A stretch of 63,753 nt of DNA, the filler included. It is 19 parts of 19 records of this genome, joined end to end, with 100 filler letters (N's around TTAATTAATTAA, not from the genome) between each part and the next. Parts side by side here need not be neighbours in the genome. Positions count along the whole stretch, not along the records: positions 59,401 to 61,613 come from SRR11831580_6825; 18 more parts are not named here. The stretch is one strand, 5' to 3'. Under the pieces are notes generated by a model, which searched no databases, was not told where the DNA came from, and saw only the letters and a program-made list of their open reading frames with translations. Of this stretch, positions 5,455 through 63,753 are shown piece by piece (position 1 is the stretch's first letter; the number at the start of each line of letters is the position of its first letter). Both the position numbers and the translations under genes were made by a program.

Positions 5455-6435
5455 ATGAATAAGAAGGTGTTAACCCTGTCTGCTGTGATGGCCAGCATGT
5501 TATTCGGTGCCGCTGCACACGCTGCTGATACTCGCATTGGTGTAACAATCTATAAGTACGACGATAACTTTATGTCTGTAGTGCGCAAGGCTATTGAGCA
5601 AGATGCGAAAGCCGCGCCAGATGTTCAGCTGCTGATGAATGATTCTCAGAATGACCAGTCCAAGCAGAACGATCAGATCGACGTATTGCTGGCGAAAGGG
5701 GTGAAGGCACTGGCAATCAACCTGGTTGACCCGGCAGCTGCGGGTACGGTGATTGAGAAAGCGCGTGGGCAAAACGTGCCGGTGGTTTTCTTCAACAAAG
5801 AACCGTCTCGTAAGGCGCTGGATAGCTACGACAAAGCCTACTACGTTGGCACTGACTCCAAAGAGTCCGGCATTATTCAAGGCGATTTGATTGCTAAACA
5901 CTGGGCGGCGAATCAGGGTTGGGATCTGAACAAAGACGGTCAGATTCAGTTCGTACTGCTGAAAGGTGAACCGGGCCATCCGGATGCAGAAGCACGTACC
6001 ACTTACGTGATTAAAGAATTGAACGATAAAGGCATCAAAACTGAACAGTTACAGTTAGATACCGCAATGTGGGACACCGCTCAGGCGAAAGATAAGATGG
6101 ACGCCTGGCTGTCTGGCCCGAACGCCAACAAAATCGAAGTGGTTATCGCCAACAACGATGCGATGGCAATGGGCGCGGTTGAAGCGCTGAAAGCACACAA
6201 CAAGTCCAGCATTCCGGTGTTTGGCGTCGATGCGCTGCCAGAAGCGCTGGCGCTGGTGAAATCCGGTGCACTGGCGGGCACCGTACTGAACGATGCTAAC
6301 AACCAGGCGAAAGCGACCTTTGATCTGGCGAAAAACCTGGCCGATGGTAAAGGTGCGGCTGATGGCACCAACTGGAAAATCGACAACAAAGTGGTCCGCG
6401 TACCTTATGTTGGCGTAGATAAAGACAACCTGGCT
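5455..6435 (+). CDS. mglB: Galactose/glucose-binding periplasmic protein, last codons replaced by linker
   Basis: [18 protein letters not shown] signal peptide; native sequence stops at DKDNLA where linker begins. Confidence 0.96.
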
Positions 6436-6459
6436 CGTAATAACTTCGTATAGCATACA
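6436..6459 (-). other. 454 Titanium paired-end (loxP-containing) linker remnant
   Basis: CGTAATAACTTCGTATAGCATACA matches the reverse complement of the linker TCGTATAACTTCGTATAATGTATGCTATACGAAGTTATTACG; sits at contig end. Confidence 0.9.
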
Positions 6460-6559: not shown

Positions 6560-6665
6560 AAGATCATGGAATTGGTAGGTTGTCCTGTCTGCATGCACGC
6601 GAACAGGTATCGAGGAGTGGATAGCGGCTGTGAATAGGCAGAGAGAGTGCACGGCGAAATTTTGT

Positions 6666-7140
6666 CCGGGATTATCCGTCGCATTCTGATATAATCCGAC
6701 CATAGAAAATATAATCTGAATCAAATCTACCAAATGTCCCCTCGCAAACCTGTATTCTGAGATAGTTCGAGATAATCCGAGAATTTCGCAATCTGTATCG
6801 GAAGTAGTGAGAGCGGCCAATTTCGCCAATATCGTGCTGATATTCTTTAATACCGGGAGTAACACGTATGTGAATGCCAGCAGAGATAGTTTCCATGTTT
6901 TCGAGTGCGTTATATTGTCGATTTAGGATAAACTAATAGCGAGCTGCGCAATCCCGGACTATGATTTCTCGGACTATGTCAAATGTCGGACTATGAGATA
7001 TAGTCGTAAATAGGTCTGGTGTGACTATTTCGGAATATCTCAGACTATTTTGCAATCAAGTGCCGTGGTACGTTTGTACTTCGGATTATATCGAACTGTA
7101 CCGCATTCACTTCCAGCGAACAGGGTACTCAGCTCGGATT
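6666..7140. repeat. Subterminal 9-10 bp repeats TCGGA(C/T)TAT in both orientations
   Basis: ATAATCCGA at 6691 and 6772; (T/C)CGGACTATG at 6954, 6969, 6986; TCGGATTAT at 7081; variants at 6711, 6762, 7030, 7040. Confidence 0.8.
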
Positions 7141-7626
7141 GTGCCGTCGTATAGCTTATGCTTGATTAGTTATAGTGCACGGTGTACGTGCATCCTTCGG
7201 TGTATATGTATAGGTCTGCGTCTGCTTGTTTGTGAACGTTCTGCATGTGTTTGTAAGTATTGTGTGTGTTCAATGCTGTGCATGAGTGCTGTATGTATGC
7301 GTGTATATGAGCGCGTGTGTATGCATCCTGTATATTTATGTGCATGATTGTGTGTGTCCGCGTGCCATGTACGGCCCATATATACATGTATATGATACAT
7401 CTATGTGGTGTATCCGTGCATATCTAGCTATGCATGTCTGCAATGAGTCAACAAGTTTGTATATACATATATACTGCATGCCCGGAGTGCGTCTAATGTC
7501 TATGTATGTATGCATGTTTACGCGTGCACTGTTGAATAGCATGAATAAAGTAACATTGTACAGATTTTGCATACAGACATCAATATATTCATACGTATAT
7601 AAACCTAATAGACGCATGCTTCGATT

Positions 7627-10311
7627 CTACTCCTGAACCACACATACATAGGGAGGTAAATGAACGACGACAATGGGTAACATGCAATCACGCACCGACT
7701 GCGTTACCGGTATCACCCGCGGCTCTCCCTCCACAACGAGCTTGACTGGATAAGCGGGGAAGTCGTCGAGATCCACGTTGGTTGAAACAAGACGCAGGCA
7801 TTCGATCAGTTCAATCCTGTCCGACACATCTACTACACACATTTACACATATACATGCATTAGATATGACTGTTTGTAGCTGCATGCATCGTAGACATTG
7901 TGTGTTATAGGATCATCACCGCACTATGGAGCACTATATATGGACATGTAATTCAGTAACTTGTTGCATAGATGCACATGTATATATACATATACATCCG
8001 CGTACCCAGCGACAGGCGCACAAGCTTTTTGCAGTGGAAGTATTGCCCATCGTACGCGAAACAGCATTTCGAGCCGAGGCTGCCCTTCGCAACAGGCAAT
8101 AGGCTGAACTTTGCAATCCTGGCACACTCTGGAAAGTGTTCCGTCACAAATTGATGTAGTTGTGGTGATGTTGACAGTAAACAGGTATCGGAGGGCGGTT
8201 GTAGCTGGGGCGTGATTGCGGCAAACGCATCTCTCTCCACCATGAGCTCCATCGCCCTATTCATACACATGCATACAAAATGAGAATAAATTGGGTATGC
8301 GCGTGAGTAGTTCGGACATACCGGTGATGAACGCTGCGGTTGTTACGGACCAGGCGCGACAGAGTCTTCACTTCTCGATTGATACTCTCGAACCTCATGC
8401 ACCACTGCAATCTGACTGGACCAAACCTGCAATAAGGTATCCAGAATTCGATCAGATACAATTCGCAATCCTTGAAAACTTACCAGAACATACTTAACAT
8501 ACTTGAAAACTCACCTCTCAATCATTAGTGGTACATGTGTGAAATAATGCATCTTCGGAGTGTACACGTCCGGGCGCTCCTCCTTCCAGCAGCGGAGGAA
8601 GTCGATCGTGATCTGCTTCATCAATGAAATGTCAGTAGGGCGAAGTGTGGTCTTGAGACTGAGCACCGTGTGCGCCACCAGAAGTGACACTGCACGCGTG
8701 ATAGTAACGTTCGGACGACGAAACTCGGTTGCAAAAATTGAAGGAAGACTCACAAGCAGCTGCAGATGCTCATAGGCTGCACACAATCACAGCGCAGCAA
8801 CGTATTAGACAAGCGCGCATAGTCAACCCATTCACAGAAAGCTCAACACAATGCATGCAGAGCTAGAGACGGCGCGCGTACCTGAACCCGTCAGAGTCCA
8901 CCCTCCGTCCCCTTTGACAATTAAAGGGAACTCCACGCGCCTGTTTTTCTTCCATATTGCATCATACATGCAACAGCGGTTCACTATGTCCCGATCGGAG
9001 AGACGGGATTCCATAAAACGAAAAGTGCGTCCAATACCTGAATGAATACCCTCATGCAAACATTCATGAGCATACCTACACGTATATAGAGAGACATGCA
9101 ATATACATACATAAATGCATGTAAATACCTCATGATTCCATATATACATACGGAGAGACATCCATCCATCTGTCCATATACATACATTTACATACATACA
9201 TATAGAAGAAAACATATGCATGCACGTTCACATACCAACGGTATAACCCCTTCCAACACGTCGTGCATAAAGTCTTGCGGGAGGCACTGCGCCATGTTGA
9301 AAAACGGAACGTCCCGGAGAGGGGATATGCCCTTGATACCAGTATCCTCCTGTACTTTCGCCCTGCCCACACTCATTGTTTCACACAGCACAAGTCGGTC
9401 CCACGCCTGCTCAAACTCGCGGTGCGTTCGCAATGCAGATGGCTGCTCAGAGCGGATGTTCGAGCGGTGTACCACACATTGTCTGCAAAAGCCGACGCTG
9501 GCGGAAGAGGTAGTCAGCTGTCCCACAAACTGTTGAGCCTCGTTGTCGGCAAGATGAGCCAACAACGCAGCACGAACGCAAACTTCACCAATCTGCACCC
9601 CGACTGCAAGTGACTTGAGCTCATCAACATATGCACGGATGATATTCCCGTAACCCACCGCTGTAATGATTGACTTGGGTACAATAGCTAGGACAGTCGT
9701 TGCTTCCCTCTGATACAGGAGCGAGGGCACGTTGCAAATGGTGGCCATAACGATACCATAGTTGCGGTTGCTCTTCGCTGATTTGCCTAGTGCGTTCATG
9801 GTTGTTACGGCAAAGTCAAAGTAAAGACACAAAGCAATATGCGACCCACGCGATAGGAGCGGATGTGCCCGATAGATACCGCCGGATGCCATCGATGTCA
9901 TATCGGGGGAAGCGGAACATGTCACCGTGTGCGATGCAATCTCCGCCATAAGTGCTGGATATCGTGTTAACATCTGCACCAGCCAATCTTGTAAGCGAAT
10001 ATACGAATACCCGCCACATTCCGAGCGGGACACCGGCTATACAGGGCACAAACAAATGTTAGAACTCGATTGGCACGGGTCAGACACGCCTGCATCCATG
10101 CAGACAGAGCAAGTATAAATATGTAAGGCGCAGTGCATGAGTGCGCAGGGCGACACCAGCCTTTGCATTCATGCACATATATGCCCAGCAGTGTTCCCTA
10201 CAAATTAAGACAATAAGAACCCCGAAATCAAACAAAGACAGGACCATACAGAAACACAAACAAACACAATTAACGGAACACAGGCGTACCATAACAACAA
10301 TCGTCCATGGG
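7627..10311 (-). CDS. Intron-containing CACTA/En-Spm-like transposase, 5'-partial. Exons 10311-10290, 10036-9236, 9037-8882, 8776-8515, 8426-8322, 8256-8006, ~7829-7627
   Basis: Spliced motifs LYFD, NVP, LADN, FCRQC, PQDFMHDVLEG, LTGSAYE..LP, TPKMHYFTH..IERFGP..WCMRFE; GT-AG junctions keep phase except for one 1-nt shift at ~9015-9024. Confidence 0.85.
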
Positions 10312-18680: not shown

Positions 18681-18707
18681 TCGTATAACTTCGTATAATG
18701 TATGCTA
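18681..18707 (+). other. 454 Titanium paired-end (loxP-containing) linker remnant
   Basis: TCGTATAACTTCGTATAATGTATGCTA at contig end. Confidence 0.92.
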
Positions 18708-26746: not shown

Positions 26747-27389
26747 AGGCGGAATCGTGAGAAGAATTCCGTGTTGGGGCACGCACACACACAGTCCACC
26801 CAAGAACACTGCTCGCGCCCTGCTAAGCGGTTCTCTGTCCACGCGCTGTAGTAACAGGGACAGACGCACGCACCAAGACCTACAGAACAGAGACGAGACA
26901 GCGATAGAGTTGCATGATGAGCAAATAGATACGTACGGGAACGTAACAAAGAAGTAGAGACAAAGACACGTAACCGCATCATAAAGGAGGCACGCCTATT
27001 TCCCGTGAGGACCGAGAGCACAATGTCGCTGCGCACTGTCGAACACAGACACAGTCAGTGGACGCGCACGTACACGTAGAAACAGATCCGCGGCAGGAGA
27101 GAGGATAAATCCACGTTGGGTGTCGGTGACCGCGCAATCGAGCGGCACGACGCATATCAGAGACAGCGTACAGGCGCCACGACGCGACGTGGGGAAGAGG
27201 TGTTTGGCCATCGAAGAACAGAGGGCGGAAGAGATATTCATCGTTGTCGGCGATGAGTTTCCGAAAGCGACGATTGACCTGTACGACAGACACCAGCGTA
27301 TGCGGATTGCGTGCTTGTTGCAAAATGTACAGCCAGACATCTTCCGGAATTTCAAGATCCCAGCGAACTGGACTGCCAGTTGAATTCAT
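26747..27389 (-). CDS. Eukaryotic F-box protein, 3'-partial. Exon 27389-27074, 38-nt intron 27073-27036, next exon from 27035
   Basis: LEIPEDVWLYILQQA..LVSVVQVNRRFRKLI F-box pattern, then LRGH (possible WD40 start); GTACGT...CTGAC...CAG intron. Confidence 0.7.
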
Positions 27390-27678
27390 GTTGTTGGTTG
27401 CCCTCTGCATGCATAATATAATAATGCGGCTCGTACATCGGATTCGTGGACAGCAGAAAGTTTCAGCTGTCACGTTTTTGACTCCTTAAGTTTCACTTGC
27501 AAATGTCGCCACTGCACCAACTGGTGTCATGTACCCGTGACCCAAAACCTTTGAGACCGCTGTTCCTCGCAAAGTATCTGTATTTTGGTCTGTCGTGATC
27601 TACTAGATAAGGCGGTCCTGTTCGCCCTCACATTTACGTCTACATCATTATGAATCGTCACACGCCTTGTGATCCGAC

Positions 27679-30435
27679 ATGCATATAATTTCGTGGGCTC
27701 TGCTTGTAACAGTAGCTTTCACGAGCATCCTCGGGTCATTTGCTGGTATGAAACTGGTCTTCTTGCGGTGTATGTGCAAAACATGACCGCTCTCTCGATC
27801 GTAGTGACTGTCACATCGTTATCCGCCCGATTCGGTCCCACGACTGGCGGTACTGTTATCACTGTAACGGGTAGCGGTTTTGTAGCAGGAACTGTGTATT
27901 GTTCGTTTGGCGGTCCTGATATTGTAGGAGGGTACTTGACTGCATCGACCATCACCTGCACCGCTCCGGCCACCGCTGCAGGCACAGTTTACGTGGAAGC
28001 CAGGAACAACGGTGATGTCTACTCGACCAATTACGTTCCGTTCACCTTCTACAGTACGCTTTCTTTTTCCATCGCACGAATCTGCATCACCTGATGCGCC
28101 GTTGTCCCCTACAGCAATAACCATCTCAAATTACGCGCCACGCTCCAGTATCACCACGGGCGGTGCGCGTGTGACCATCACGGGGTCTGGGTTTTTGGTT
28201 TCCCCTTCGCTGCAGTGCATGTTCGGGGCGACGGTGGCTGCTGCGACGTGGACGTCCGTATCGACAGTGATGTGCACCGCCCCGGCCGCCAGTACGTAGT
28301 CGCGTTATCATGTTTTTGTTATTTTTATTTTCCCACATGGAAATGGTATTCGCTTGTTTGCAGGTGCACGTAGAGTAGTTTTATGTGGGGTGTTGTAGTG
28401 TGAAGGAGAGGAGGGTGTCGGGTATGTGACATGGTCCCCTTAATGACGATATCGTGTATAGGTGCCGGGGCCGTGGCGCTGTCTATCACCAACAACGCGC
28501 TGCAGTACACGTCGGTTGGCACCTTTACGTACAGTACGTACCCATAACAAATCACCTACTGCGCTGTTCTGATGTTTGGTCTCTGCGAAAAAATAGTGGT
28601 CTGCTGTTGAGTTGTTTGCGGGTAGTGTTGTTTGCAGATGTGAACTTCATCTGTATGTCAGCATGTGTTCATACCTGTTGTCCTGCGTGTATATTTCATG
28701 CCTTGTCTTTCTACCGCTACTGTGTGACTGATGTATGTGTGTTTGTGTTTGTGTAGCTGCGCTGCCCACCGCTACCGCTGTGAACCCTACTCGCGGTCTG
28801 ATCGGTATGTCACCGCGTTTGTGTGAGAGGGACAGAGAGAGTGTGTGTGTTTGTATATGCACGTGCTCGTTTTGCTGCTTGTGTATGCATGCGAGATGTT
28901 ATAGAGTGTCGTCGTGCATATTGGTTCGGTGGAGGATACTGAGGAAAGGCTATATATGGTTGCATTCTTCTTCCTTTCGTCCTACAGTGGTGATATCTGC
29001 TTGTTCTGCTATGTGTACATGTAAATTTGATTGACTCATCTTCTTTTCAGCGGGTGGAACGACGGTGTCTGTGACGGGGGCGAATTACGTGGCCGACCCG
29101 GAGTCTCAGTGCATATTTGGCAGTACGTCGCCTTTAGGTGTTGGTGTTGTGCGTCGCTTTCATGTATCTGGTGTTCGTATTTGCTTGACATAGAAGTGAG
29201 TGTTCGTACTCATGTGGATTTTGAGAGAGGGCTGATCATTATATATTTTGTAGCTATGTATACAGGTGCTACCTACGTCTCCGCCACAATTTACCGCTGC
29301 ATTTCACCGGCACAAGCTGCCGGTGCAGTAACGGTCAACGTGGCTAATAACGGCATATCATATTCCGCCAGCGCCCTCTCATTCACGTACAGTACGTCTG
29401 CTTGTCATACGGGAGTAAGTGTGTGTCATATTCGTCCTGTTCGAGCACGTGGTCTAACTTTCTTTCTCTGTTTTACAGCCGATGCGATTGTGACGTCTCT
29501 GAATGTCTTAACGGGCGTACTGGCCGGTGGCACAACCGTTACGGTGCAGGGCTCAGGGTTCGTGTCCTCGCCTGCGCCTGTTTGTAAAGTGGGGACCATC
29601 GCAGCTTCGTGCTCGTATTTCTCGGCCGCTGCTATCACAGTACGCGCTCCTGAATTTGTGTTTGTTTCTATGTATGTTCAAATGTATGTGATTGTGTGTG
29701 TTGGTGTGTTTTGTGTATCTGTGGTGCCATTTGTTACAGTGGATGGTGTAAGCTGCTGCATGTGGAGGTGTGACATTCTGCAAGTATGTTTCTCTATTCG
29801 CGTTCATATTTGTCTAACGGTGGTGTCGGGTAGTTGACAACCCCTGCGTATGGCTCCGCTGGCACACAACCGGTGGAGATATCTGTGGACGGTGGTCTTA
29901 CATATACGAACGACCGTGTCTTATTCACCTATGCGAGTACGGCCCTTGTGTTCATCTATAATAGCAGATACATGAATAAGTGGTGGCTCCGCGTGCGTTT
30001 ATTTGCTGTTCGTGTGAGTTAGTTTCGAATCAGTGTGTTGTATTCTGTATGCGCTTCTCATTCTGTGTTGTGTGTGTTACTTTTTCTTCCAGCTCCCACG
30101 ATGTCAGGTCTAGCTCCAGCGTACGGTCCTACCACAGGGGGTACCGTGGTCACCATCACGGGGACAAACTTTTATGCGGTACGCTTGCTTACACACGTAC
30201 ACACACACGATAGTGTTGTCTCTTGTTCGAAGGGTTCATAAGGTGTTTATCCATATCACCTCCACATTGGGATCCCGCTTTCTCGTGGTCGGGATGCTCA
30301 TCGTCATCTCCCTCAGCTAACGTGTGTTCTGTGTGTCACAGACTGCGCTGACTCGATGTCTGTTTGGCACGGTGCCTCTGGTGGCGACTGCAGTCTCGTC
30401 CACCATCATTCAATGCACAGCGCCCGCCGTCGCTG
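27679..30435 (+). CDS. Eukaryotic secreted or cell-surface IPT/TIG-repeat protein, 3'-partial. Exons 27679-27745, 27805-28053, 28115-28291, 28462-28533, 28757-28804, 29051-29122, 29254-29391, 29479-29639, 29834-29936, 30093-30178, 30342-30435
   Basis: Signal peptide MHIISWALLVTVAFTSILGSFA, then five repeats of GG-T-V-T-x-x-G-x-x-F...C-x-FG...C-T-A-P...F-T-Y; all ten junctions GT-AG and phase-consistent. Confidence 0.88.
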
Positions 30436-30724
30436 GTACGGACCCTGAACCATGTGACAAAGGGGAAGGAAATGGTGGTGTTCGGTTGTGCGTGTGTGTG
30501 TGTGGTGGGTTGAATATGCGGGATATTTCGGATACGTGTGAGAACGTTAGTGCTGCCGACTTTTGGATGTCGCTGTTTGTTTCGATCCTTTAATATTGGT
30601 ATCGTGTGCATCACCTGATTTGACTCGTGGGATTGCATTGAAGTCACGAGTTCTTACGGCCGTGCTGGGTGTTGTTGTCGTTTCATCCGTGTGTGCGTGT
30701 GGTGTTTCTGTATCTGTATCTGTA

Positions 30725-30744
30725 TGTGTGTGTGTGTGTGTGTG
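30725..30744. repeat. (TG)n microsatellite at contig break
   Basis: Run of TG directly before the spacer. Confidence 0.85.
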
Positions 30745-48748: not shown

Positions 48749-49845
48749 TTACAACGTCGGGTAATCGGTATAGCCTTCCGCGCCGCCACCGTAGAAACTT
48801 TCGGCACGCTGTGGGTTAAGCTCAGCTTTGCGCTGCAAGCGGGCGACCAGATCCGGGTTCGCAATCCAGTCACGACCAAATGCCACCGCATCAATTAACC
48901 CTTTGCCGATCAGCGTTTCAGCTTTTTCTACTGTGTATGCACCTGCGCCGATAATCGGACCGTGGAAACGGGCGCGTACTTTTTCGCGGAACGCATCAGT
49001 ATACGGTTCACCCCCGCCCAATCTGGTTCTGACATATGCAGATAAGCAATGCCGCGTTTACCCAGTTGTTCAATCAGATACAGTGCATCGGCTTCTTCAT
49101 TCGGGCCGTTATCTGTGTTCTGGAAAGTACCGATTGGTGAAACGCGAATGCCAATGCGATCGGCACCCCATTCTTCAATCCCGGCATCGACCACTTCCAG
49201 TACCAAACGTGCGCGATTTTCCACGCTGCCGCCGTACTGATCGGTACGATGGTTTGAAGAAGGAGAAAGGAACTGATGCAGCAAATAACCGTGAGCAGAG
49301 TGGAGCTCTACCAGATCAAAACCGGCTTCACGCGCGTTAGCAATGGCCTGACGGAAATCATTGACGATACCTGGAATCTCTTCCAGTTCAAGCGCACGCG
49401 GCATGGATGTTTCAACACGGATCGCCTGACCATTTTCATCGCGCAGAGAAGTACGTGTTCCCGCGCTAAGTGCTGAAGGCGCTACCGGTGCCTGACCGCC
49501 AGGTTGCAGGCTGGCGTGAGAAATGCGTCCGGTGTGCCACAGCTGCACGGCCATATGACCATTTTCAGCATGAACGCCAGCGGTGATTTTTTTCCATGCG
49601 GCAATTTGCTCCGGACTATGGATGCCAGGCGCACCTGCATATCCTTTTGCCTGGGCAGAAATTTGCGTGGCTTCACTAATAATCAAACCGGCACTGGCAC
49701 GTTGGCGATAGTATTCCGCCATCAACGGGGTAGGAATGTCACCCGGTTCAATACTGCGCAGACGCGTCAGCGGTGCCATAAAAATACGGTTTGCCGCCGT
49801 GATCGCGCCCACTTTCAGTGGGGAATACAGTTTTTCAGATGACAT
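48749..49845 (-). CDS. nemA: N-ethylmaleimide reductase with 1-nt G-run frameshift at ~49011-49015
   Basis: Old yellow enzyme motifs APLTR and HSAHGYL; two ORFs join. Confidence 0.95.
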
Positions 49846-49881
49846 AAAGGCTCCCGGTCGTCTGGTGATAAAAAATGCCTG

Positions 49882-50481
49882 CTAAACGGCAGGCGTCGCA
49901 ATAATGTTTTTTACATGGGCCAGCGCGTTTTCCAGTGGCTCGAAACTGCGCGAAATTTTGGCCTGCAGATTCGCGCCAAGCCACAGTGCGTAAAGCACTT
50001 GTGCCTGTTGCAGCGGTTCGCCACAAAAGGTTAAACAATGGTTCTCACGGCCATTTTCCAGCGCCTGAGAGAGCAGGGCGATCACGCCGCGAGCACCTTT
50101 ATCCATCGCGCTGCGCATATCTTCTGACAGATCGCACACTTCGGCAGAGAGTTTTACTGTCAGGCAACCACTGATGGTTCCATGTTGGCAAAACTGGTTC
50201 AGTGTTTGCTGGTAATAAGCCAGTATGCGGTCGCGGTAGTTACCTTCGCCGGATTGCAGCAACTCAGTCAGTCGCTGGTGATATGCGGCGTAATGACGCT
50301 CAAGCATGGCAACGCCAAACGCTTCTTTAGAGCGAAAGTAGTGATAGAAGGACCCTTTCGGCACTTCAGCGGTTTTTAGTAATTCGCTTAGCCCCATCCC
50401 GGTGAATCCACGTTGCAGGCAAAGTTGCTCGCCCGTCGCCAGGAGATGTTCGCGAGTATCATGTTCGGTGTGTTTGTTCAT
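49882..50481 (-). CDS. nemR: TetR-family repressor
   Basis: 199 aa, VPKGSFYHYF. Confidence 0.95.
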   Translation of the reverse strand: MNKHTEHDTREHLLATGEQLCLQRGFTGMGLSELLKTAEVPKGSFYHYFRSKEAFGVAMLERHYAAYHQRLTELLQSGEGNYRDRILAYYQQTLNQFCQHGTISGCLTVKLSAEVCDLSEDMRSAMDKGARGVIALLSQALENGRENHCLTFCGEPLQQAQVLYALWLGANLQAKISRSFEPLENALAHVKNIIATPAV

Positions 50482-50583
50482 GCGTTGGAGTGTAGTAGAC
50501 CAGTCGGTCTAGTGCAAGCAAAGTTGCTACTTTGGACATTAACAGCTTCAATAATGGTAATAATCTTATCTGAGGAGGGCGAA

Positions 50584-50823
50584 GTGGCGGAGCAATTAGA
50601 GTTCTTTCCCGTCCAGAGCCCGTGCCGGGGAATTTGCCAGTCTGACGAACGCGGGTTTTGTCGCGGCTGTTTTCGTAGTCGTGATGAGCGTTTTAACTGG
50701 AATAAAATGAGCGATGGCGAAAAACAAGAGGTGCTGCGCCTTTGTCGGCAGCGATTAATGCGCAAATTACGCGCAAATAAGCCAGCGTCATCAGACGAAC
50801 CGGAGCAACCATCACTCTTTTGA
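50584..50823 (+). CDS. ydhL: DUF1289 small Cys-rich protein
   Basis: SPCRGIC...CRGCFR; GTG start after GGAGG. Confidence 0.85.
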   Translation: MAEQLEFFPVQSPCRGICQSDERGFCRGCFRSRDERFNWNKMSDGEKQEVLRLCRQRLMRKLRANKPASSDEPEQPSLF

Positions 50824-50871
50824 ACCTAATCTTGCGTATACTCCTCTCATATCTGATAAGAGGAAGCGATT

Positions 50872-51768
50872 ATGGTTCAGCGTATTACTATTGCGCCGCA
50901 AGGCCCGGAGTTTTCCCGTTTTGTGATGGGCTACTGGCGATTGATGGACTGGAATATGTCCGCCCGCCAGCTGGTCAGTTTTATTGAAGAGCATCTGGAT
51001 CTCGGCGTGACCACCGTGGACCATGCTGATATTTATGGTGGCTATCAGTGCGAAGCGGCGTTTGGCGAGGCACTGAAACTGGCACCTCACCTGCGTGAAC
51101 GGATGGAAATCGTCAGTAAATGCGGTATCGCGACGACCGCGCGTGAAGAAAACGTCATTGGTCATTACATCACTGACCGCGATCACATCATTAAGAGCGC
51201 CGAACAGTCGCTAATTAATCTCGCGACCGATCATCTGGATTTGCTGTTAATCCACCGACCAGACCCGTTAATGGATGCCGATGAAGTGGCGGACGCGTTC
51301 AAACATCTGCATCAGAGCGGCAAAGTGCGTCATTTTGGCGTATCGAACTTTACGCCTGCGCAATTTGCCCTGTTGCAATCACGTCTGCCGTTTACCCTTG
51401 CCACTAATCAGGTGGAAATATCCCCGGTGCATCAGCCGTTACTGCTGGATGGCACGCTCGACCAACTACAACAACTGCGTGTTCGTCCGATGGCGTGGTC
51501 CTGCCTTGGTGGTGGTCGTCTGTTTAATGATGATTATTTCCAGCCGCTGCGTGATGAACTGGCTGTGGTGGCAGAGGAGTTAAACGCGGGCTCGATTGAA
51601 CAGGTGGTTTACGCCTGGGTATTACGTTTACCATCGCAGCCGCTGCCAATTATCGGTTCAGGTAAAATTGAGCGCGTACGGGCAGCTGTCGAAGCAGAAA
51701 CACTGAAAATGACCCGTCAACAATGGTTTCGTATCCGTAAAGCGGCACTGGGGTACGACGTACCGTAA
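50872..51768 (+). CDS. ydhF: Aldo-keto reductase
   Basis: DHADIYG, LLIHRPD, GVSNF. Confidence 0.93.
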   Translation: MVQRITIAPQGPEFSRFVMGYWRLMDWNMSARQLVSFIEEHLDLGVTTVDHADIYGGYQCEAAFGEALKLAPHLRERMEIVSKCGIATTAREENVIGHYITDRDHIIKSAEQSLINLATDHLDLLLIHRPDPLMDADEVADAFKHLHQSGKVRHFGVSNFTPAQFALLQSRLPFTLATNQVEISPVHQPLLLDGTLDQLQQLRVRPMAWSCLGGGRLFNDDYFQPLRDELAVVAEELNAGSIEQVVYAWVLRLPSQPLPIIGSGKIERVRAAVEAETLKMTRQQWFRIRKAALGYDVP

Positions 51769-51848
51769 GCACTTTTAGGAATAGCCGCCGTTCAAAAATG
51801 TGTCACTGGTTTACACTTATTCAGGAATGCACAATGAACGGAGGTCCT

Positions 51849-52092
51849 ATGAAACGTTTTAGTCTGGCTATTCTGGCGCTGGTTGTTGCAACCGGCGCAC
51901 AAGCTGCCAGTGAAAAAGTCGAGATGAACCTCGTCACGTCGCAAGGGGTAGGGCAGTCAATTGGTAGCGTCACCATTACTGAAACCGATAAAGGTCTGGA
52001 GTTTTCGCCCGATCTGAAAGCATTACCCCCCGGTGAACATGGCTTCCATATTCATGCCAAAGGAAGCTGCCAGCCAGCCACCAAAGATGGCA
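51849..52092 (+). CDS. sodC: Cu/Zn superoxide dismutase, 3'-partial
   Basis: Signal peptide and HGFHIH. Confidence 0.95.
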
Positions 52093-52225
52093 NNNNNNNN
52101 NNNNNNNNNNNNNNNNNNNNNNNNNNNNNNNNNNNNTTAATTAATTAANNNNNNNNNNNNNNNNNNNNNNNNNNNNNNNNNNNNNNNNNNNNCCTACACA
52201 AGCACTCACCCTTCTTCCCCTGCAG

Positions 52226-54278
52226 CGACCGTCGCGGTATGCCTGAGGAACCGCTCAAGCACGAGGACGAACGCGGCACAGAACGCACCGAACTGATGCA
52301 CTTTGCACGCCTGCCCTTCCCCACGCTGCAGCGGGGTCGTCTCTCCCTCAGCGCACAGGCCGTTGCAGGAGGCGCCCCGACCAATGACAGGGTGTTTTCG
52401 GAGGAGCTGAGTGTGCACGAGTTTGTGAGTGTGTTCACAGAGGCGCTGCACACGGAATCGCGCATTCGCACCTCGTATGTTTGTTGTTGTAGTGGTGGTG
52501 GTATTTCGGTGGGGCGTGTTGCGATGCACAGTTATGTATTCACGTGTGTGTTTCTCTCGCTTTCCCGTGTGGTGTCGTACGATGTCGGTCCTCTCTGGTG
52601 TTGACGTGATTGCGGCAGGTACGTCCCGGAGGAGGACTCACTGCTTGTGGGTCTGACAACCAATGTTCCCAAGTCCAGACGCCGTGTCCGACGCATGGAT
52701 ATCGATGTATGTCTCGTGTATATGTAGATAGTGATATTCACATGTGTCGTACAAGTTTGTTGCTGTGTGTCAGCCGTGCGTGTGCGTATGTTCTTCTTCT
52801 TGCGGTCTCATCACCCGTCCGTAACAGGTACCCGTGGATCGAGGCTTTGCTAGTTGGCGTGAGGAACACGGCCCCACCGTGTCTGAGTATGTCGCAAAGG
52901 AGATTAAAGCAGCTACCCCGGCACCACATCCTCCCGCGTCCGTGTCAGCACCGCCGGAAGAGCAGAAGAAACCGGAGGGGAAACCAGGGTACGCAGGGAT
53001 CGCATGATTGCTGCTGTGTGTGGAGTGTTATCGAGATGTCTGTGTGCGGTAGCTGTGGGGACGTGTAGTGCAGATCTCAACGAGCCGGTGCTTGTGTATG
53101 TGTACAGGGCCAAGCCTAAGGAGGCGCCCGCACCGGCTCCGGTGGTGGAAACCAAACCTGTTGCACCGCCCCCGCCTCCTCCCAGTCAGACAGCGCAGCA
53201 GCTGCCTCAAGCGCCGCCGTATATGTACAAATCGAGATCGACGCTGCCTGATGTGAAGCAGCGTGTGTTGTTCCCCTTTGATGGTGCCGTTGTGCGCACG
53301 TTCAACACGGAGGAGGGTATGCGTGCTGTGGATTATCTCTGTCTCCGCGCACCCACATGTCGTTGTAAACAGGCAGAATCTGTTTGTGCGCATAGGATCG
53401 TTGCTTGGTCACATAGGCGTATCTGCGTGTTGGTGTTGTGTTGGCGGTCACTTCGAACGCGATAGTATACGTAATAATCATCTGTGTGTGCAGGTGTGCG
53501 TGCTGTTGTGGCTGTGGACAGCCTTACCTTTGGACTGCGCTCTGTCTCTGGAGGCGAACACGTGTTTAGTGTTTCGTTTATGGATAACGCAGCGGGCCAG
53601 TGTGTGTCTGAGGTGGAGCGTGTCGACAGTGCCTTGCGTGCTCTGGTGTCGTTGCCCTCCGGTCTGACTGTGGAGGTACGCAATCATTTTATGTGTGTGT
53701 GTGTCTTTACGCTAAGTGTCAGATGTGACTTCGGGTGCGTGCATGCATGTGCGTTCTCTGCGTTTTCGTCCTCGTGCTTGGTTCCTCGCTCCCTTCCTTC
53801 GGAGCTGCTTCGTATTATTGTTGCTGTACTCTTGTCGTTCGATCTTATCTGATGGAAAATCATTCAGAACTCCTCTGCTGGTTACGTGCAAATGTCCTAC
53901 TGTGACGCCCATGCACGTGCGGAGGCGGGGCCTGCTCCTCGTGTTGAGCGTGTCAGACGCATCCTGCCCAAGGTACGCGTTCGCGTCATGTGGTGTGCTG
54001 CTGTATTTGTTATGTTGCGAGTGTATACTTTATGCACGTTGCCTCGTGCCTTATGTGTGTAGATGTGTATAGATCTGTATGCGCGTGTGTTGTGTTATCC
54101 CCTCGCACACCCCCTGTACATTCCCTGTCATGATTTTAATTCTCCCACGCCCTCTCACACACTGCCTCACCAGGGCACCGTGATCTGTGCGATGGAGGAC
54201 GGGTCCACACACGTGCTGTGTGCGAACGGGAACGTGGCGATCCTGCGAGATGGCCTGTGGACGGTTACCAGCAATGAT
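52226..54278 (+). CDS. Eukaryotic SPAG17/PF6-like central-pair protein, internal fragment. Exons 52226-52474, 52619-52706, 52828-52988, 53108-53316, 53494-53675, 53868-53972, 54174-54278
   Basis: Seven phase-consistent GT-AG exons; blocks YVPEEDSLLV, LFPFDGAVVR, LPSGLTVE and RRILPKGTVICAMEDGSTHVLCANG..W resemble SPAG17 blocks in the same order (from memory). Confidence 0.65.
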
Positions 54279-54565
54279 GTACGTAATGGATGCGCGTCTG
54301 CTTTCGTGGTGTGTGGGGCCTGGACCACTAGGAGGGGGAGGGTTCCTGAGGAAGGGGAGGTGCCGGTGTGGGCACAGGTAGCATGTGTATCATACGGTTG
54401 ATGAAGCTATGTGGGTTTGCTCGTGAAAAGCGCTTGCCAGGCCCGTGTGTGTCTCTGTTTTTTTTNNNNNNNNNNNNNNNNNNNNNNNNNNNNNNNNNNN
54501 NNNNNNNNNTTAATTAATTAANNNNNNNNNNNNNNNNNNNNNNNNNNNNNNNNNNNNNNNNNNNN

Positions 54566-59400: not shown

Positions 59401-61613
59401 CAAAAGTCTGGGTATATTGTTGTGGACGGTCGTCACAGAGTCACGGCTGCAATGGAGCTCAAGATTCCCATTGTGTACGCCGCCTTCTTGCGTGCTGAAA
59501 CGCCGTTGGCTGTTGTATACCGCATCGCTTACAGTACGTACTGCGCGTGAGCTAGATGGTTATTCATTCACCTTTGAATAGTGCAGAACGAAATCAAGGA
59601 GACCACCGTTAAAACCACTTTCTTTTCAAGGTTGGAAGGAGTTCTGGGTGGCTGGAATATGCTTGTGAAAGTTTTTGCCGCCACTGGCGCGAAGCCCACC
59701 GAGAAGGACGTGGCTCAGTTCCTGTCCGGTGGGTTGTCGCCCAGCGAGGAAAAAGATAAGAAAGCAACTTCTACTGCCCGTGGCACTGTCTCACGGCACA
59801 GTGTTTTTCTGTCGTTCCTCTTGGACGACGGTTCAGGCTCCAAGTTCGGCTCAGTTGACCCCGGCGAATTCTGTCGCCAGCACCCAGACGAGCTGTCTGA
59901 GCCACCTTTGTACAAGCTGGTGCACGGTGCTAGTGAGAATGTTGAATCTCCACTTATCATTAAGGCGCATCTGGAGGTGATGACTGATTCGAAGTTCCGG
60001 CAGTACTTGACCTTCGCTGTGGCCCACGCGGTACGCCATATTTCTGTATTTGGGGAGCTGTATTGATTTTGTTGACAGTTCTTCGAAAATCTCATCCGTG
60101 AAGGGATGAAGTTCCAAAAGGCGCTGAAGGCCGACGCGGCTAGTAAAATTCTGTGGACCATCATCTGTCGCAACGAGGCTACAAAATGGGTCGGTCAAAG
60201 CAGCGACTGCCCTCCCGACTGGAAGCAACAAATCGAGGCTGGCGACTTCGACTCGCTGTTCAGCTGCAACGTGCAGCAAGTGGCCTCCGCCATGATGGAG
60301 AGACTTGCGCATCATCACAAAACCCAGTCAGCTCAGAGCGAGGCGGCAGAACTACTCCGCAAGCGGAAAGCGCAGCTTTCTGAGGAGGGCGGGTCGGTTG
60401 CTCTGTTGGAAACCGAGATGAATAGTGAGGGTGGGTGCTCGTGATCCGCGGATCGCCTCGGTTCTGACTTGTGATTGCATGCAGGTGAAACCATGACGCC
60501 CACGGAAGTCAAACGGAAGAAGCGAGAGCATCGCAAGTTGTTGGAAGCCGAGTTGTCAGAGCGGAAGGCTGAAGTTGAGAAGCGCCAGAAAGAGTTGGTG
60601 CAGGCGTCCCTCGAGGACAGAATCGCTGTCGTTCATTGTGCGGCTGGTGACGCGGCGCAAGAAGCGGCAATGAACAAGGGCTGGAATGTCGGAGGCAAGC
60701 GACGTGCGGCCAAACTGGTGATTTTGGACCCCCCTTTCGGCATAATGGGCAAGGACCACGACACCATCAACGATACAGAATTGGAAGCAGTGTTCTCCAA
60801 TTTGTACCACGACGACGTGACGGAGCCGTTGGCGTTCATGTACGTTTTCTGCGCTTGGCAAGATATCGGGCAGTGGTCAGCCATGGCCACCAAGCATCAT
60901 TGGACCGTGATGAAGAATCCTTTGGTTATGGTCTACAGCAATCCGCCTCGTCTGGTATGTCGGGATCGATCCGCGGATCCAGTACTCGTAGCTAACTTCA
61001 TGCACTGTAGCCTTCCTTCTCTGACGACCCTTTCCCTTCGGCCAACCCTATCCTTGTTATGCGTAAGGCGAAGGAGACGATCAAGGATGCTCGCTACTTG
61101 GGCGAGTCGATGCAGCAGCACCCTTTCCACCAAACTCTGATGACCAAATTCCAGAACAACAAACAACCGAGTCCTGATACAGTTGACACGGAGAAGGTGC
61201 GGGCATTCCGTGCGGAGGAAAAGCCGGACCAGGTGTACGTGGAATTGATACACCGTGATTCACGTCCAGGTACGTTCGATTGGCAGGTGCATGTTCGCTG
61301 TTTGCTTATGTTATGTAGGGGACTTGGTGGTCGACCTGTTTGCCGGTGCTGGGACCTGTGCATACGCTGCCATCATGACGCAGAGGTTCTGCTGGACCTG
61401 CGACAAAGATCCCATGAGCGTGGAGGTCACAAAGAAACGTGCTCTTCAGGCCCAGATGGAGATTGAAGCCAACTACTCCAAACTTCGCCTTTATGGTCCA
61501 CGTCGCACGATGGACGGTTTGGCACCGGTTACGTTACGCCGAGATGAAACGCCTGAGCGTGACGCGCCGCCTTATGTTCCAAGTGGTACTTCTGTCGGCG
61601 AGGGTGATGCAGG
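59401..61613 (+). CDS. Eukaryotic intron-containing ParB/Srx-like + beta-class N6A/N4C DNA methyltransferase fusion, partial at both ends. Exons 59401-59533, 59582-60030, 60079-60430 (or 60424), 60485-60954, 61011-61269, 61319-61613
   Basis: YIVVDGRHRVTAA (ParB/Srx), LVILDPPFG (motif IV), EKP..LI..SRPGDLVVDLFAGAGT..AA..R..CDKD (motifs X, I, II); five GT-AG introns give one continuous frame. Confidence 0.85.
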
Positions 61614-61713: not shown

Positions 61714-61731
61714 TTATACGAAGTTATACGA
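61714..61731 (-). other. 454 Titanium paired-end (loxP-containing) linker remnant
   Basis: TTATACGAAGTTATACGA at contig start, cutting ygeY after MAKNIP. Confidence 0.88.
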
Positions 61732-61805
61732 GGAATATTCTTAGCCATTATTTTTCTCCAGATTTTTTACTCCCCGTTTTGCAGGGAGCAGTTCCAATAG
61801 GGTGA

Positions 61806-63002
61806 TTAAGGTGCTACAGCGTGTTTGCCTTCCCAGACAACTTCGCGGTAGTGCTTCACGTCGGTGTCGCCTTCAGTGCTGATAACCAGCACCACGGCAT
61901 CTTTGTTCAGCGCCAGTTTTTCCATCAGGCTTTGACGTTGCGGGTGATAATGAACCGCTGCGAGAACGCCCAAACCGACAGCGCCGGATTCACCGGAGAT
62001 GATGCGCGGGTCGTTGCCGTACGGATTACCCAGCACGCGCATACCTAATGCGGCAACGCTGTCCTGGCAGGAGATGAATTGGGTGGCGCAGTTACGTAGG
62101 ATTTCCCAGCCCAGCGGGTTAGGTTCGCCACAGGCCAGGCCTGCCATGATGGTGGCCATATCACCGCCAACGTTGACGATGTCGCCTTTGACGCCGGAGC
62201 GATAAATACAGTCAGCTTTGTCAGGTTCAACAATAATGCTGTGCAGATTTTGCGGGCTATAGACGTCGACCAGATAACCCAGCACACCACCGGCCATTGC
62301 TCCGACACCGGCTTGCAGCAGAACGTGCGTCGGGGTTACGCCCATTTCACGCATTTGCTCGACGGCTTCATCTGCCAGGGTTGCGTAGCCTTGCATGATC
62401 CAGGTTGGGATTTTGGTGTAACCTTCCCATGCCGTGTCCTGTACCACTTCCCAGCCGTGCTGCTGCGCGTGTTGCATGGTCAGGCGAACGGTATCGTCAT
62501 AGTTCATATCCGTGACGATGCACTCGGCACCGAGGTTCAGAATGGCGTCAACGCGTTCCTGAGCAGAACCTTTCGGCATGTAAATCACCGCATTCTGTCC
62601 GAGTTGCTGTGCTGCCCACGCCACACCGCGCCCGTGGTTGCCGTCGGTGGTGGTCGCGAAAGTCATTTTTTCGCCGATGGCATTTTTCAGGTGCTCAAAT
62701 GACAGCGTTTCGATATCAAGATGATATTTTTCACACAATAATTGAGCGATGGCGTACGCACCGCCAAGCATTTTGAAGGCGTTCAGACCGAATCGTTTTG
62801 ATTCGTCTTTGACGAGAATTTTCTTCACACCAAAAAGGTTTGCGAGATCGTCCAGCGCACAAAGCGGTGTTGGGCGATAACCAGCTATTTTCTGGTGGAA
62901 CTGGCGCGCCAGTTTGGCCTGGCTTTGCGAAAAGAGCGGTGATGTTTCGCCGTTGAAAAATTTGTTATCGGCGATATCAATCTTCAATGAGAAAACGGAC
63001 AT
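61806..63002 (-). CDS. ygeX: Diaminopropionate ammonia-lyase
   Basis: 398 aa; KDESKRFGLNAFK PLP lysine, TDGNHG. Confidence 0.95.
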   Translation of the reverse strand: MSVFSLKIDIADNKFFNGETSPLFSQSQAKLARQFHQKIAGYRPTPLCALDDLANLFGVKKILVKDESKRFGLNAFKMLGGAYAIAQLLCEKYHLDIETLSFEHLKNAIGEKMTFATTTDGNHGRGVAWAAQQLGQNAVIYMPKGSAQERVDAILNLGAECIVTDMNYDDTVRLTMQHAQQHGWEVVQDTAWEGYTKIPTWIMQGYATLADEAVEQMREMGVTPTHVLLQAGVGAMAGGVLGYLVDVYSPQNLHSIIVEPDKADCIYRSGVKGDIVNVGGDMATIMAGLACGEPNPLGWEILRNCATQFISCQDSVAALGMRVLGNPYGNDPRIISGESGAVGLGVLAAVHYHPQRQSLMEKLALNKDAVVLVISTEGDTDVKHYREVVWEGKHAVAP

Positions 63003-63059
63003 ATCCTATCCTTTTGGCCTCTGGAAATAGAGGGCCGACCAGCTGATCGGCCCGAGGGG

Positions 63060-63753
63060 TTATTTCACGCGTTCTTGCGCTTCTTTCAGCAGTTGCTCGA
63101 GCAGTGCACCTGGTTTGGCGTATTTACGGGACAGGATCATCGCGGCGATGATATAAGGCTTCCAGCTGGCTTCTTTGTAGGTAGCGATACGGATTTTTCG
63201 AATACGCCTTCAGTCACTTCACCTTCTTTACAGGATACGCCGCTGATATCAGCTGGCAGGCAGTGCATGTACAGGGCTTCGCCATCACGGGTCAGTTCCA
63301 TCATCTCTTCAGTACAATGCCAGTCTTTGTGTTGCGCGTTCTGTGCCAGACACTGTTTTTCCAGTGCTTTTAAGCCTTCGTGATCGTTCGCACGCAGCAA
63401 TTCAGTACGCTCTTCCATCACTTTGTAAGGTGCCCATGACTTCGGATAAACGATGTCTGCGTCTTTGAAGGCTTCTTCCATGCTGGTGACCTGACGGAAG
63501 CTACCACCGGAGGCTTTAGCATTGTTTTTCGCCACTTCAACCACATCCGGGATCAGGTCGTAGCCTTCCGGATGGGCCAGGGTGACATCCATACCGAAGC
63601 GAGTCATCAGACCGATGATGCCTTGTGGTACAGAGAGCGGTTTGCCATAGCTTGGAGAGTAGGCCCAGGTCATGGCGATTTTTTACCTTCAGGTTTTCCA
63701 GTGAACCAAAGTGTTCACGTAACCACGCGAGGTCAGCCATTGACTGAGTCGGG
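63060..63753 (-). CDS. ygeW: Knotted carbamoyltransferase YgeW, 5'-partial, with frameshifts at ~63192 and ~63679-63690
   Basis: TWAYSPSYGKPLSVPQ and YMHCLPAD; upstream of ygeX. Confidence 0.9.

Follow-up and report, generated by a model that had tools for sequence, protein, structure and literature searches.

The stretch of DNA analysed here (63,753 bases, referred to as the window) is composed of 19 contigs of 2.0-6.5 kb each, linked by N44-TTAATTAATTAA-N44 spacers. One of these contigs, at positions 59401-61613 (2213 bp, GC 0.537, with a spacer on either side), is occupied in its entirety by a fragment of an intron-containing gene, the predicted product of which combines the C-terminal part of a ParB/Srx-like module with a helix-turn-helix (HTH)-like region, a charged linker and a beta-class amino-methyltransferase.

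Exon-intron structure of the gene

The five GT-AG introns that had been proposed in a first-pass annotation, made from the sequence, were recovered exactly. Their excision yields 1958 nt, corresponding to 652 codons with no stops and a frame that is open at both contig ends, and the peptides quoted in that annotation are present in the list of open reading frames (ORFs). The introns (5/5 of the GT...AG type) are 48-56 nt long, three of them start with GTACG, two contain CTRAY branch-like sites, and their GC content (0.482) is lower than that of the exons (0.544, with 0.64 at third codon positions, GC3). The unspliced contig contains no single frame that is open throughout, its longest stop-to-stop frame being 221 aa. 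The gene is incomplete at either end, where it meets the contig boundaries (Table 1).

Table 1. Exons and introns of the gene fragment (positions along the window)
Feature	Positions	Strand	Description
Exon 1	59401..59533	+	cut by contig start; C-terminal part of ParB/Srx-like module; DGRHR at 59425-59439
Intron 1	59534..59581	+	48 nt, GTACGT...AG, phase 1; shared with L001, L002 and L003
Exon 2	59582..60030	+	end of ParB-like domain (QNEIK), then helical HTH-like region (PTEKDVAQFL ... RGTVSR)
Intron 2	60031..60078	+	48 nt, GTACGC...AG, phase 0; phase-0 intron of L001/L003 15 columns away
Exon 3	60079..60430	+	family-specific helical region and charged linker; aligns with P0001 and P0003; no Pfam match
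Intron 3	60431..60484	+	54 nt, GTGGGT...AG, phase 1; palindrome GATCCGCGGATC at 60443-60454; junction in low-complexity linker
Exon 4	60485..60954	+	charged coil-like linker and catalytic N-terminal methyltransferase half; DPPF at 60727-60738, then signature FCAWQDIG
Intron 4	60955..61010	+	56 nt, GTATGT...CTAAC...AG, phase 0; palindrome GATCCGCGGATC at 60968-60979
Exon 5	61011..61269	+	variable methyltransferase middle and EEKP...RDSRP ahead of motif I; aligns with P0008, P0010, L001 and L003
Intron 5	61270..61318	+	49 nt, GTACGT...AG, phase 1; copy-specific
Exon 6	61319..61613	+	cut by contig end; SAM-binding half, FAGAGT at 61339-61356, start of C-terminal tail

Relatives against which this gene model could be compared were obtained from two sources. 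An exhaustive HMMER search of 1.84 billion representatives with exon 4 returned 14 proteins at E<=1e-3 (best identity 42 %), and three (loci L001, L002 and L003) were confirmed among 28 matches to a pattern with which metagenome contigs were scanned. Of the 14 HMMER-found proteins, 13 can be aligned with the spliced product. The alignment with P0008 runs ungapped through junction 5 (RDSRPG before and DLVVDLFAGAGT after the junction, vs RDSEPGDFVGDLFCGSGT), and junction 4 is spanned in the alignment with P0010. Intron 1 occupies the identical alignment column, in the same phase, in all three metagenomic relatives, and for intron 4 both L001 and L003 have an intron of equal phase at a distance of 1-3 columns. 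Where intron 4 lies, P0008 has additional residues of low pLDDT that find no counterpart, which is how a read-through intron would look. Intron 5 is private to the window copy, its site being bridged without an intron in P0008, L001 and L003. The description of the locus as a spliced gene of eukaryotic type is thus upheld by homologues that cross its junctions and by two introns (1 and 4) that are shared with relatives. The case is less favourable for introns 2 and 3, where homology support is weak and the open frame is the main argument, since the introns of the relatives lie 15 and ~64 columns away; the first exon 3 residue is also where P0001 starts, which bears on intron 2.

Given the shortness of the contig, its truncation at both ends and the little homology behind introns 2 and 3, the gene might be suspected of being a pseudogene that is not expressed, or its frame of being created artefactually by the choice of introns. 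Such an explanation appears very improbable in view of the 652 stop-free codons, the contrast between GC3 (0.64) and intron GC (0.48), the intact conserved motifs and the support given by homologues to junctions 1, 4 and 5. The gene fragment is considered real and probably functional.

Source of the contig

The contig adjoining the gene fragment (61714-63753) shows 99.9 % identity to Escherichia coli from its 19th base onward, and nine window contigs are ~99-100 % identical to the nearest genome compared (G001). The contig at 59401-61613 was matched neither by any of 5,426 complete E. coli genomes nor by G001, and is therefore regarded as a stray contig from another organism that was co-assembled with an E. 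coli strain. Given the largely enterobacterial character of the other contigs, it was also considered whether a gene of the E. coli culture, bacterial or from a phage, had been misread as spliced. The probability of this is practically negligible: besides the lack of a frame open through the contig (longest, 221 aa) and of a match in the E. coli genomes and G001, no relative was found in pattern scans of 185,579 prokaryotic species genomes and of IMG/VR, and the introns of the relatives are found at the same places.

The methyltransferase half

Sequence comparisons, together with the modelled fold of a relative, place the C-terminal half of the predicted protein among the beta-class S-adenosylmethionine (SAM)-dependent amino-methyltransferases, at superfamily level. 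The order of motifs in the spliced product is that of the beta class, DPPF (motif IV) being N-terminal to FAGAG(T) (motif I) at a distance of 169 residues. The variable stretch encoded by exon 5 would, by its position, be the target-recognition region. The spliced product can be aligned with P0008, P0010 and P0012 from upstream of motif IV to past motif I, and these proteins, three of the ten HMMER hits scanned, pass the Pfam cut-off for PF01555 (31.4, 68.4 and 43.0 bits, respectively, P0010 matching the whole profile, 1-221), as do an exon of L001 (29.8 bits) and an exon of L003 (39.6 bits). Exon 6 of the window copy matches three DNA-methyltransferase families of the PHROG collection (8.7e-6, 1e-5 and 2.1e-4). 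Among solved proteins, the family profile matches M.MboIIA (2.1e-7), M.RsrI (4.4e-5) and CcrM (1.8e-3), the M.MboIIA alignment covering both the motif IV region and the motif I region.

The fold was tested on the relative P0008 rather than on the window protein, using an AlphaFold2 (AF2) model with a pLDDT of 61.1 and a pTM of 0.63. Foldseek returned 188 matches with E<=0.001, headed by beta-class N6-adenine enzymes, with CcrM first (1.5e-11), followed by M1.HpyAVI, M.BceJIV, M.RsrI and M.MboIIA (range 1.5e-11 to 4e-9); rotifer N4CMT (9e-9) and PvuII came next, and MT-A70 proteins ranked lower (~2e-7 to 1e-6). No Pfam match to MT-A70 (PF05063) was obtained on any window exon or scanned relative. 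Both the assignment to a PF01555-type beta-class enzyme and the placement outside MT-A70, as put forward in the first-pass annotation, are in agreement with these results, the PF01555 enzymes being nearer in sequence as well as in fold.

Several observations count against this assignment or against activity. In the window, the exons of which were scanned against Pfam singly and not as the spliced product, PF01555 was matched by exon 6 alone (E 0.0045) and at 17.4 bits, under the cut-off of 26.7, and an NCBIfam scan of exons 4 and 6 gave no match. The expectation of a Pfam match to this domain was borne out for the relatives; for the window copy, the single-exon match stayed below the cut-off. 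Moreover, motif IV reads DPP[FW] in six of ten aligned members, is DGPW in two and is lost in two, with DGPW also present in L001 and L003; since the motif is altered or lost in part of the family, catalysis is not universal there.

Members with DGPW or without motif IV also raise the possibility of a protein that does not methylate DNA, either an RNA methyltransferase or a DNA-binding/regulatory protein with a non-catalytic methyltransferase fold, and eukaryotes have several times recruited acquired N6-adenine (N6A) methyltransferases for RNA (PMC4738411). A role of this kind is rather unlikely for the window copy, which keeps canonical DPPF and FAGAGT and in which the Pfam scan of the exons detected no RNA-binding domain; in addition, the sister proteins P0010 and P0012 bear a chromatin-linked SET domain. 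The fusion to a ParB-like/HTH module points in the same direction, as such modules are, to our knowledge, DNA-associated in all characterised relatives.

The ParB/Srx-like half and the helical region

Of the ParB-like domain, the window contains no more than the C-terminal ~40 residues. On sequence comparison, this N-terminal fragment belongs at superfamily level to a ParB/Srx-like module; the single tests are weak and concordant in register. The DGRxR motif is invariant in 4/4 family members. When the N-terminal family profile was compared with the PDB, 12 of 19 matches were to proteins of the ParB/Srx fold (seven SbnI/serine-kinase/1vk1 and five sulfiredoxin chains), in register. Profile-profile alignment with hhalign matched the N-terminal family alignment to 13 bacterial ParB-methyltransferase fusions (probability 86 %, E 5.1e-6) and to 30 chromosomal ParB proteins (probability 53.6 %, E 1.3e-4), with DGRHR placed over GHxR/GERR and ANKTR over ENxQR; QNEIK of the window copy is aligned with the ParB ENxQR box. 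The ParB-like module is also matched by the Noc profile (E 2.2e-3) and by ParB-like families of PHROG (0.0023 and 0.0051). The region encoded by exon 2 is conserved with L001, L002 and L003 and is placed by hhalign on ParB box III and the first HTH helix. The ParB/Srx-like nature of the N-terminal part, which had been claimed from the DGxHR signature, is consistent with these matches and with the complete module found in the three metagenomic relatives.

The motif is not that of a typical ParB clamp. Box II (GERRxR) of the CTPase-clamp ParB proteins (Spo0J/Noc/KorB type) is not kept, the family sequence being DGRHR(V/C)xAA with retention of only the G and the second R, and DGxHR resembles the motif of SbnI, serine kinase and sulfiredoxin.

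Against the ParB/Srx-like assignment, the remaining seven of the 19 PDB matches were to ornithine decarboxylase, and the thresholds of the curated profiles were not reached. The ParB-like domain is intron-split in every copy and was scanned in pieces only; under these conditions Pfam ParB_N (PF02195) was matched by one of six ParB-region pieces, an exon of L002, at 15.9 bits vs a cut-off of 26.3 (E 0.014), window exon 1 gave no ParB_N match, and TIGR00180 was matched by an L002 exon at 19.9 bits vs 58.45 (E 4.7e-4). A Pfam match to ParB, proposed in the first-pass annotation, thus remained below cut-off. An earlier full-length hhalign comparison was weaker, with ParB matches of 33 % probability (E 4.5e-4) and 3.9 % (E 0.011). 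The AF2 model of exon 2 is all-helical (pLDDT 59.7) and gave no Foldseek match at E<=0.001, so that the HTH reading rests on the sequence pattern and the partial hhalign alignment.

Relatives and rarity of the family

The window gene belongs to a small, divergent and intron-rich family whose predicted domain order is kept in three other loci. With 14 hits among 1.84 billion representatives the family is very rare, and in this analysis it was encountered in microbial eukaryotes only. At 50 % identity, the family forms at least nine clusters. Ten HMMER hits were scanned with Pfam; five had no match, P0006 is an unrelated repetitive protein and P0011 showed a weak unrelated match. No homologues came up in word-index searches, be it with exon 2 or, at longer lengths, with exon 4 and the methyltransferase half of L003.

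A complete ParB-like module precedes the methyltransferase within one gene in L001, L002 and L003. The match to the DGRHR exon lies 1.1-1.2 kb upstream of the methyltransferase match in L001 and L003, and the ORFs of L002 carry a DGRYR version. Gene models of L001 and L003, built by hand and frame-checked, contain no stops and encode 828 and 787 aa, respectively, with seven introns each (46-73 nt). The order of the parts is constant: a ParB-like domain close to the N-terminus is followed by a conserved 'ANKTR ... TQQxVAxYL ... RGTVSH' region and, after a linker, by the methyltransferase. An acidic tail is present at the C-terminus of L001 and L003. Although L001 (1625-4482) and L003 (355-3139) come from different metagenomes and their methyltransferase exons are ~47-60 % identical to P0008, all seven intron positions and phases are equal; the sharing of introns despite divergence points to old introns and to vertical descent in one lineage.

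A second branch of the family is represented by P0010 (854 aa) and P0012 (1106 aa), long and Asn/Lys/Ile-rich proteins in which the methyltransferase is followed by a SET domain and then by a C-terminal region without a Pfam match. The start of P0012 weakly matches the helical region that follows the ParB-like domain in the family (E 0.0077), and its motif I is degenerate (YAGTA).

The introns of each family gene bear a palindrome that is particular to the genome and has the common form (T)GAT...ATC(A). The window palindrome occurs once in each of introns 3 and 4 (chance expectation 0.15; Table 1). L001 has two copies of TGATATTCAAATATCA (2074-2089 and 3417-3432) and one variant, L002 has four copies of TGATGAGGNCTCATCA (500, 1742, 3113 and 3161) and L003 has three copies of TTTGATACGGYCGTATCAAA (1109, 1829 and 2710). 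Within the set of introns common to L001 and L003, the palindromes of the two genes mostly occupy different members, which gives them the look of a small repeat colonising existing introns. Introner-like elements with inverted repeats occur in other lineages (PMC7789003).

Origin and phylogeny

Fusions of ParB and methyltransferase domains are common in bacteria. Among 61 sampled Pseudomonadota genomes, 14 candidate loci were found, 12 of which have an ORF of 442-518 aa that holds ParB_N, motif IV and motif I; the 13 fusion ORFs used for comparison (442-483 aa) came from these genomes. Profile-profile alignment of the methyltransferase C-half with the bacterial fusions gave a probability of 95.8 % (E 7.6e-9). 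In a maximum-likelihood tree of 42 methyltransferase domains, from which one fusion duplicate and one doubtful motif call had been dropped beforehand, the window copy, L001 and L003 form one clade (support 98/98), which is sister to P0010 and P0012 (100/98).

The contig is interpreted, with moderate confidence, as a nuclear gene fragment of a microbial eukaryote that encodes ParB/Srx-like, HTH-like, linker and beta-class methyltransferase parts and has an ancient bacterial or mobile-element origin. The two-module architecture probably arrived as one piece, long ago, from a bacterial or mobile-element ParB-methyltransferase gene, and after the transfer introns would have been gained and ~200 residues inserted between the modules.

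The tree itself speaks against such an origin in two respects: the eukaryotic group is found on a long branch, apart from all the sampled bacterial forms, fused or unfused, and no specific bacterial sister emerged among the 42 domains. When the eukaryotic clade was constrained to join the bacterial clade of ParB fusions, the log-likelihood dropped by 0.67 units (approximately unbiased (AU) test, p 0.277); the union is thus allowed, the test being neutral. The phylogeny suggested in the first-pass annotation yielded a distinct eukaryotic clade. Scans with the family signature pattern confirmed none of 20 pattern matches as relatives in the 185,579 prokaryotic species genomes and none of 33 in IMG/VR. 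Without a close prokaryotic or viral relative in the tree and the signature scans, the transfer, if there was one, must have been old. The proposed phage origin fared less well, as a tblastn search of 50,697 phage records with the L003 methyltransferase half matched one phage (two accessions) at a marginal E of 7e-4 and 34 % coverage; the label 'phage-type' was not demonstrated.

Rather than a writer acting on host chromatin, the family might be the cargo of mobile or selfish DNA in these eukaryotes, or a weapon for or against it, such as a transposon- or virus-derived ParB-methylase present in many diverging copies; its role would then parallel that in the phages and plasmids of bacteria. Its paralogues are deeply diverged (at least nine clusters at 50 % identity, with two loci of one metagenome only ~30 % identical to the query), the catalytic motif has repeatedly been altered or lost, L002 is rich in a repeated palindromic element, a Transposase_21-like ORF is present on another eukaryotic contig of the window, and bacterial ParB-methylases reside in phages and conjugative elements (PMC4738411, PMC5512222). 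Set against this are the seven introns common to L001 and L003 across metagenomes, which point to long vertical residence, the lack of a transposase or viral gene on the four family contigs (the flanks of which are short) and the IMG/VR signature-pattern scan, in which no relative was confirmed. Such a role in mobile or selfish DNA is regarded as unlikely.

Comparison with known systems

The nearest architectural counterparts of the window gene are the bacterial and phage ParB-N6A fusions, such as Bce_0392 of Bacillus cereus, in which ParB_N is likewise followed by a beta-class methyltransferase and which score about as weakly against PF01555 as the eukaryotic family does (about 30-44 bits in both). 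Unlike these fusions, the eukaryotic genes contain 5-7 spliceosomal introns, the C-terminus of L001 and L003 is extended by a long acidic tail, and the family motif is DGRHR instead of GHxR. In the models of L001 and L003, motif IV is found around residue 395-400, vs 205-230 in the bacterial fusions, a difference that corresponds to ~200 extra residues between the modules. In Bce_0392, the ParB domain has been reported to nick DNA (PMC5512222).

The best profile and fold matches (CcrM, M.MboIIA, M.RsrI, M1.HpyAVI and M.BceJIV) share with the family the order of motifs, a D-P-P-aromatic motif IV and FxGxG. Identity to solved N6-adenine enzymes in the fold alignments is 15-18 %, and no chain was matched via a ParB part. 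The bdelloid rotifer N4CMT resembles the window gene in being eukaryotic, in bearing introns and in having a permuted N6_N4 methyltransferase domain of the bacterial kind, but its partner is a C-terminal chromodomain, it is an N4-cytosine enzyme and it belongs to another clade; its methyltransferase is described as lacking eukaryotic homologues (PMC8885841).

According to Iyer, Zhang and Aravind, writing in 2016 (PMC4738411), eukaryotes have acquired adenine methyltransferases on at least 13 occasions, permuted clades of the M.MboIIA type among them. These are events of the same kind, in which a prokaryotic restriction-modification or counter-restriction methyltransferase entered microbial eukaryotes, and clades 3 and 6 of that work are the nearest to the window family. 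The Group-1 permuted clade 3 is confined to Naegleria and derived from counter-restriction methyltransferases of mobile elements, clade 6 occurs in haptophytes, comes from phage ParB-Tls loci and is 'unpermuted' and FHA-fused, and some chlorophytes and chytrids have a ParB-type HTH fused to a Group-2 Dam-type methyltransferase (PMC4738411). The window family was compared with clades 3 and 6 by description only and may equal clade 3. A eukaryotic fusion of ParB_N with an M.MboIIA-type (PF01555) methyltransferase was not found described in the text of PMC4738411 that was consulted or in the other literature searched.

The MT-A70 enzymes (METTL3/14, METTL4 and ciliate MTA1c) share the permuted fold and have the DPPW that is also seen in many family members; they differ in that PF01555-type enzymes match the family better by sequence and fold, and in that the FxGxG motif I of the family is clear. 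The Phytophthora DAMT1-3 proteins offer a further comparison, as eukaryotic writers of N6-methyladenine (6mA) outside MT-A70 with DPPY or DPPF motifs. Identity of the window gene with these DAMTs was rejected, as they are N6-adenineMlase proteins (PF10237; PMC6211444).

Possible function and significance

The predicted enzyme would methylate DNA in a SAM-dependent manner, most likely at the N6 position of adenine. This preference is suggested by the D in motif IV and by the nearest solved relatives, which are all N6A enzymes; against it stands the view that base and substrate specificity are unreadable from a methyltransferase domain of this type (PMC8885841). The ParB-like/HTH part presumably brings the methyltransferase to DNA. 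With its DGxHR motif of the Srx/SbnI type, this part might, as in the bacterial ParB-methylase fusions, nick DNA or bind a nucleotide, which would be ATP sooner than CTP. The roles suggested in the first-pass annotation, i.e. the writing of 6mA or 4mC in a protist nucleus and gating by a nucleotide, are accordingly putative.

A bolder proposal, which is held to be distinctly improbable, is that the family constitutes a eukaryote-only clade of ParB-like nucleotide switches fused to an adenine methyltransferase, in which loading or sliding on DNA would be nucleotide-controlled, DNA would be passed to the methyltransferase and 6mA would be deposited over a domain instead of at single sites; the SET-containing sister clade would couple 6mA to histone methylation. 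If true, no ParB-like switch for DNA loading would have been known before to act in the nucleus of a eukaryote, and 6mA would have a further, independent writing system that does not belong to MT-A70.

The gene fragment is of interest on the more conservative interpretation as well, i.e. as a nuclear gene of ancient bacterial or mobile-element origin. Except in ciliates, green algae and early fungi, there is dispute over the writing of 6mA in eukaryotes and over the enzymes responsible for it, and each independent acquisition of a bacterial methyltransferase may be regarded as a natural experiment. The family would add an acquisition with a ParB/Srx partner, which in the literature searched is undescribed on eukaryotic beta-class methyltransferases, with a window copy that is catalytically intact by motif and with relatives that are fused to SET.

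Other contigs of the window

Three further contigs (6560-10311, 26747-30744 and 52193-54465) have no G001 match and are eukaryotic-looking. An ORF of 282 aa (9191-10036, minus strand) has among its nearest Atlas clusters eukaryotic ones of the Transposase_21/Plavaka type, the taxonomy of its matches being given as 'Eukaryota' only, with mixed phyla. One of the eukaryotic-looking contigs contains 'TVTGSGF'-type repeat modules, which we take to be IPT/TIG-like, with introns starting GTACG(T/C) between them and TG-rich runs. As GTACG donors are common to this contig and the ParB-methyltransferase gene, both may have the same source. One of the three contigs is without any long frame.

The regions 1-1972, 36257-39901, 40002-42272 and 48105-52092 show 69-81 % nucleotide identity to G001, with adjoining stretches at ~100 %, and in the first contig the identity switches at about 1972/2005, inside a single contig. 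Synonymously recoded E. coli DNA was considered for the 75-81 % identical enterobacterial stretches and rejected, since tblastx protein identity in matching frames is ~71-85 % for 1-1972, which indicates natural divergence. The diverged enterobacterial stretches could represent a second enterobacterium or heterologous replacement segments.

The contig at 45871-48004, which is not in G001, contains four ORFs in a row (170-200 aa) that presumably resemble fimbrial subunits, and is probably E. coli accessory DNA. Three E. coli-like contigs start or stop in ATAACTTCGTATA / TATACGAAGTTAT (6435-6459, 18683-18707 and 61714-61731), sequences that we assume to be loxP arms; the last contig does not match E. 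coli over its initial 18 bases. Such loxP-like ends suggest an engineered laboratory strain, the lox scars of which interrupt the assembly.

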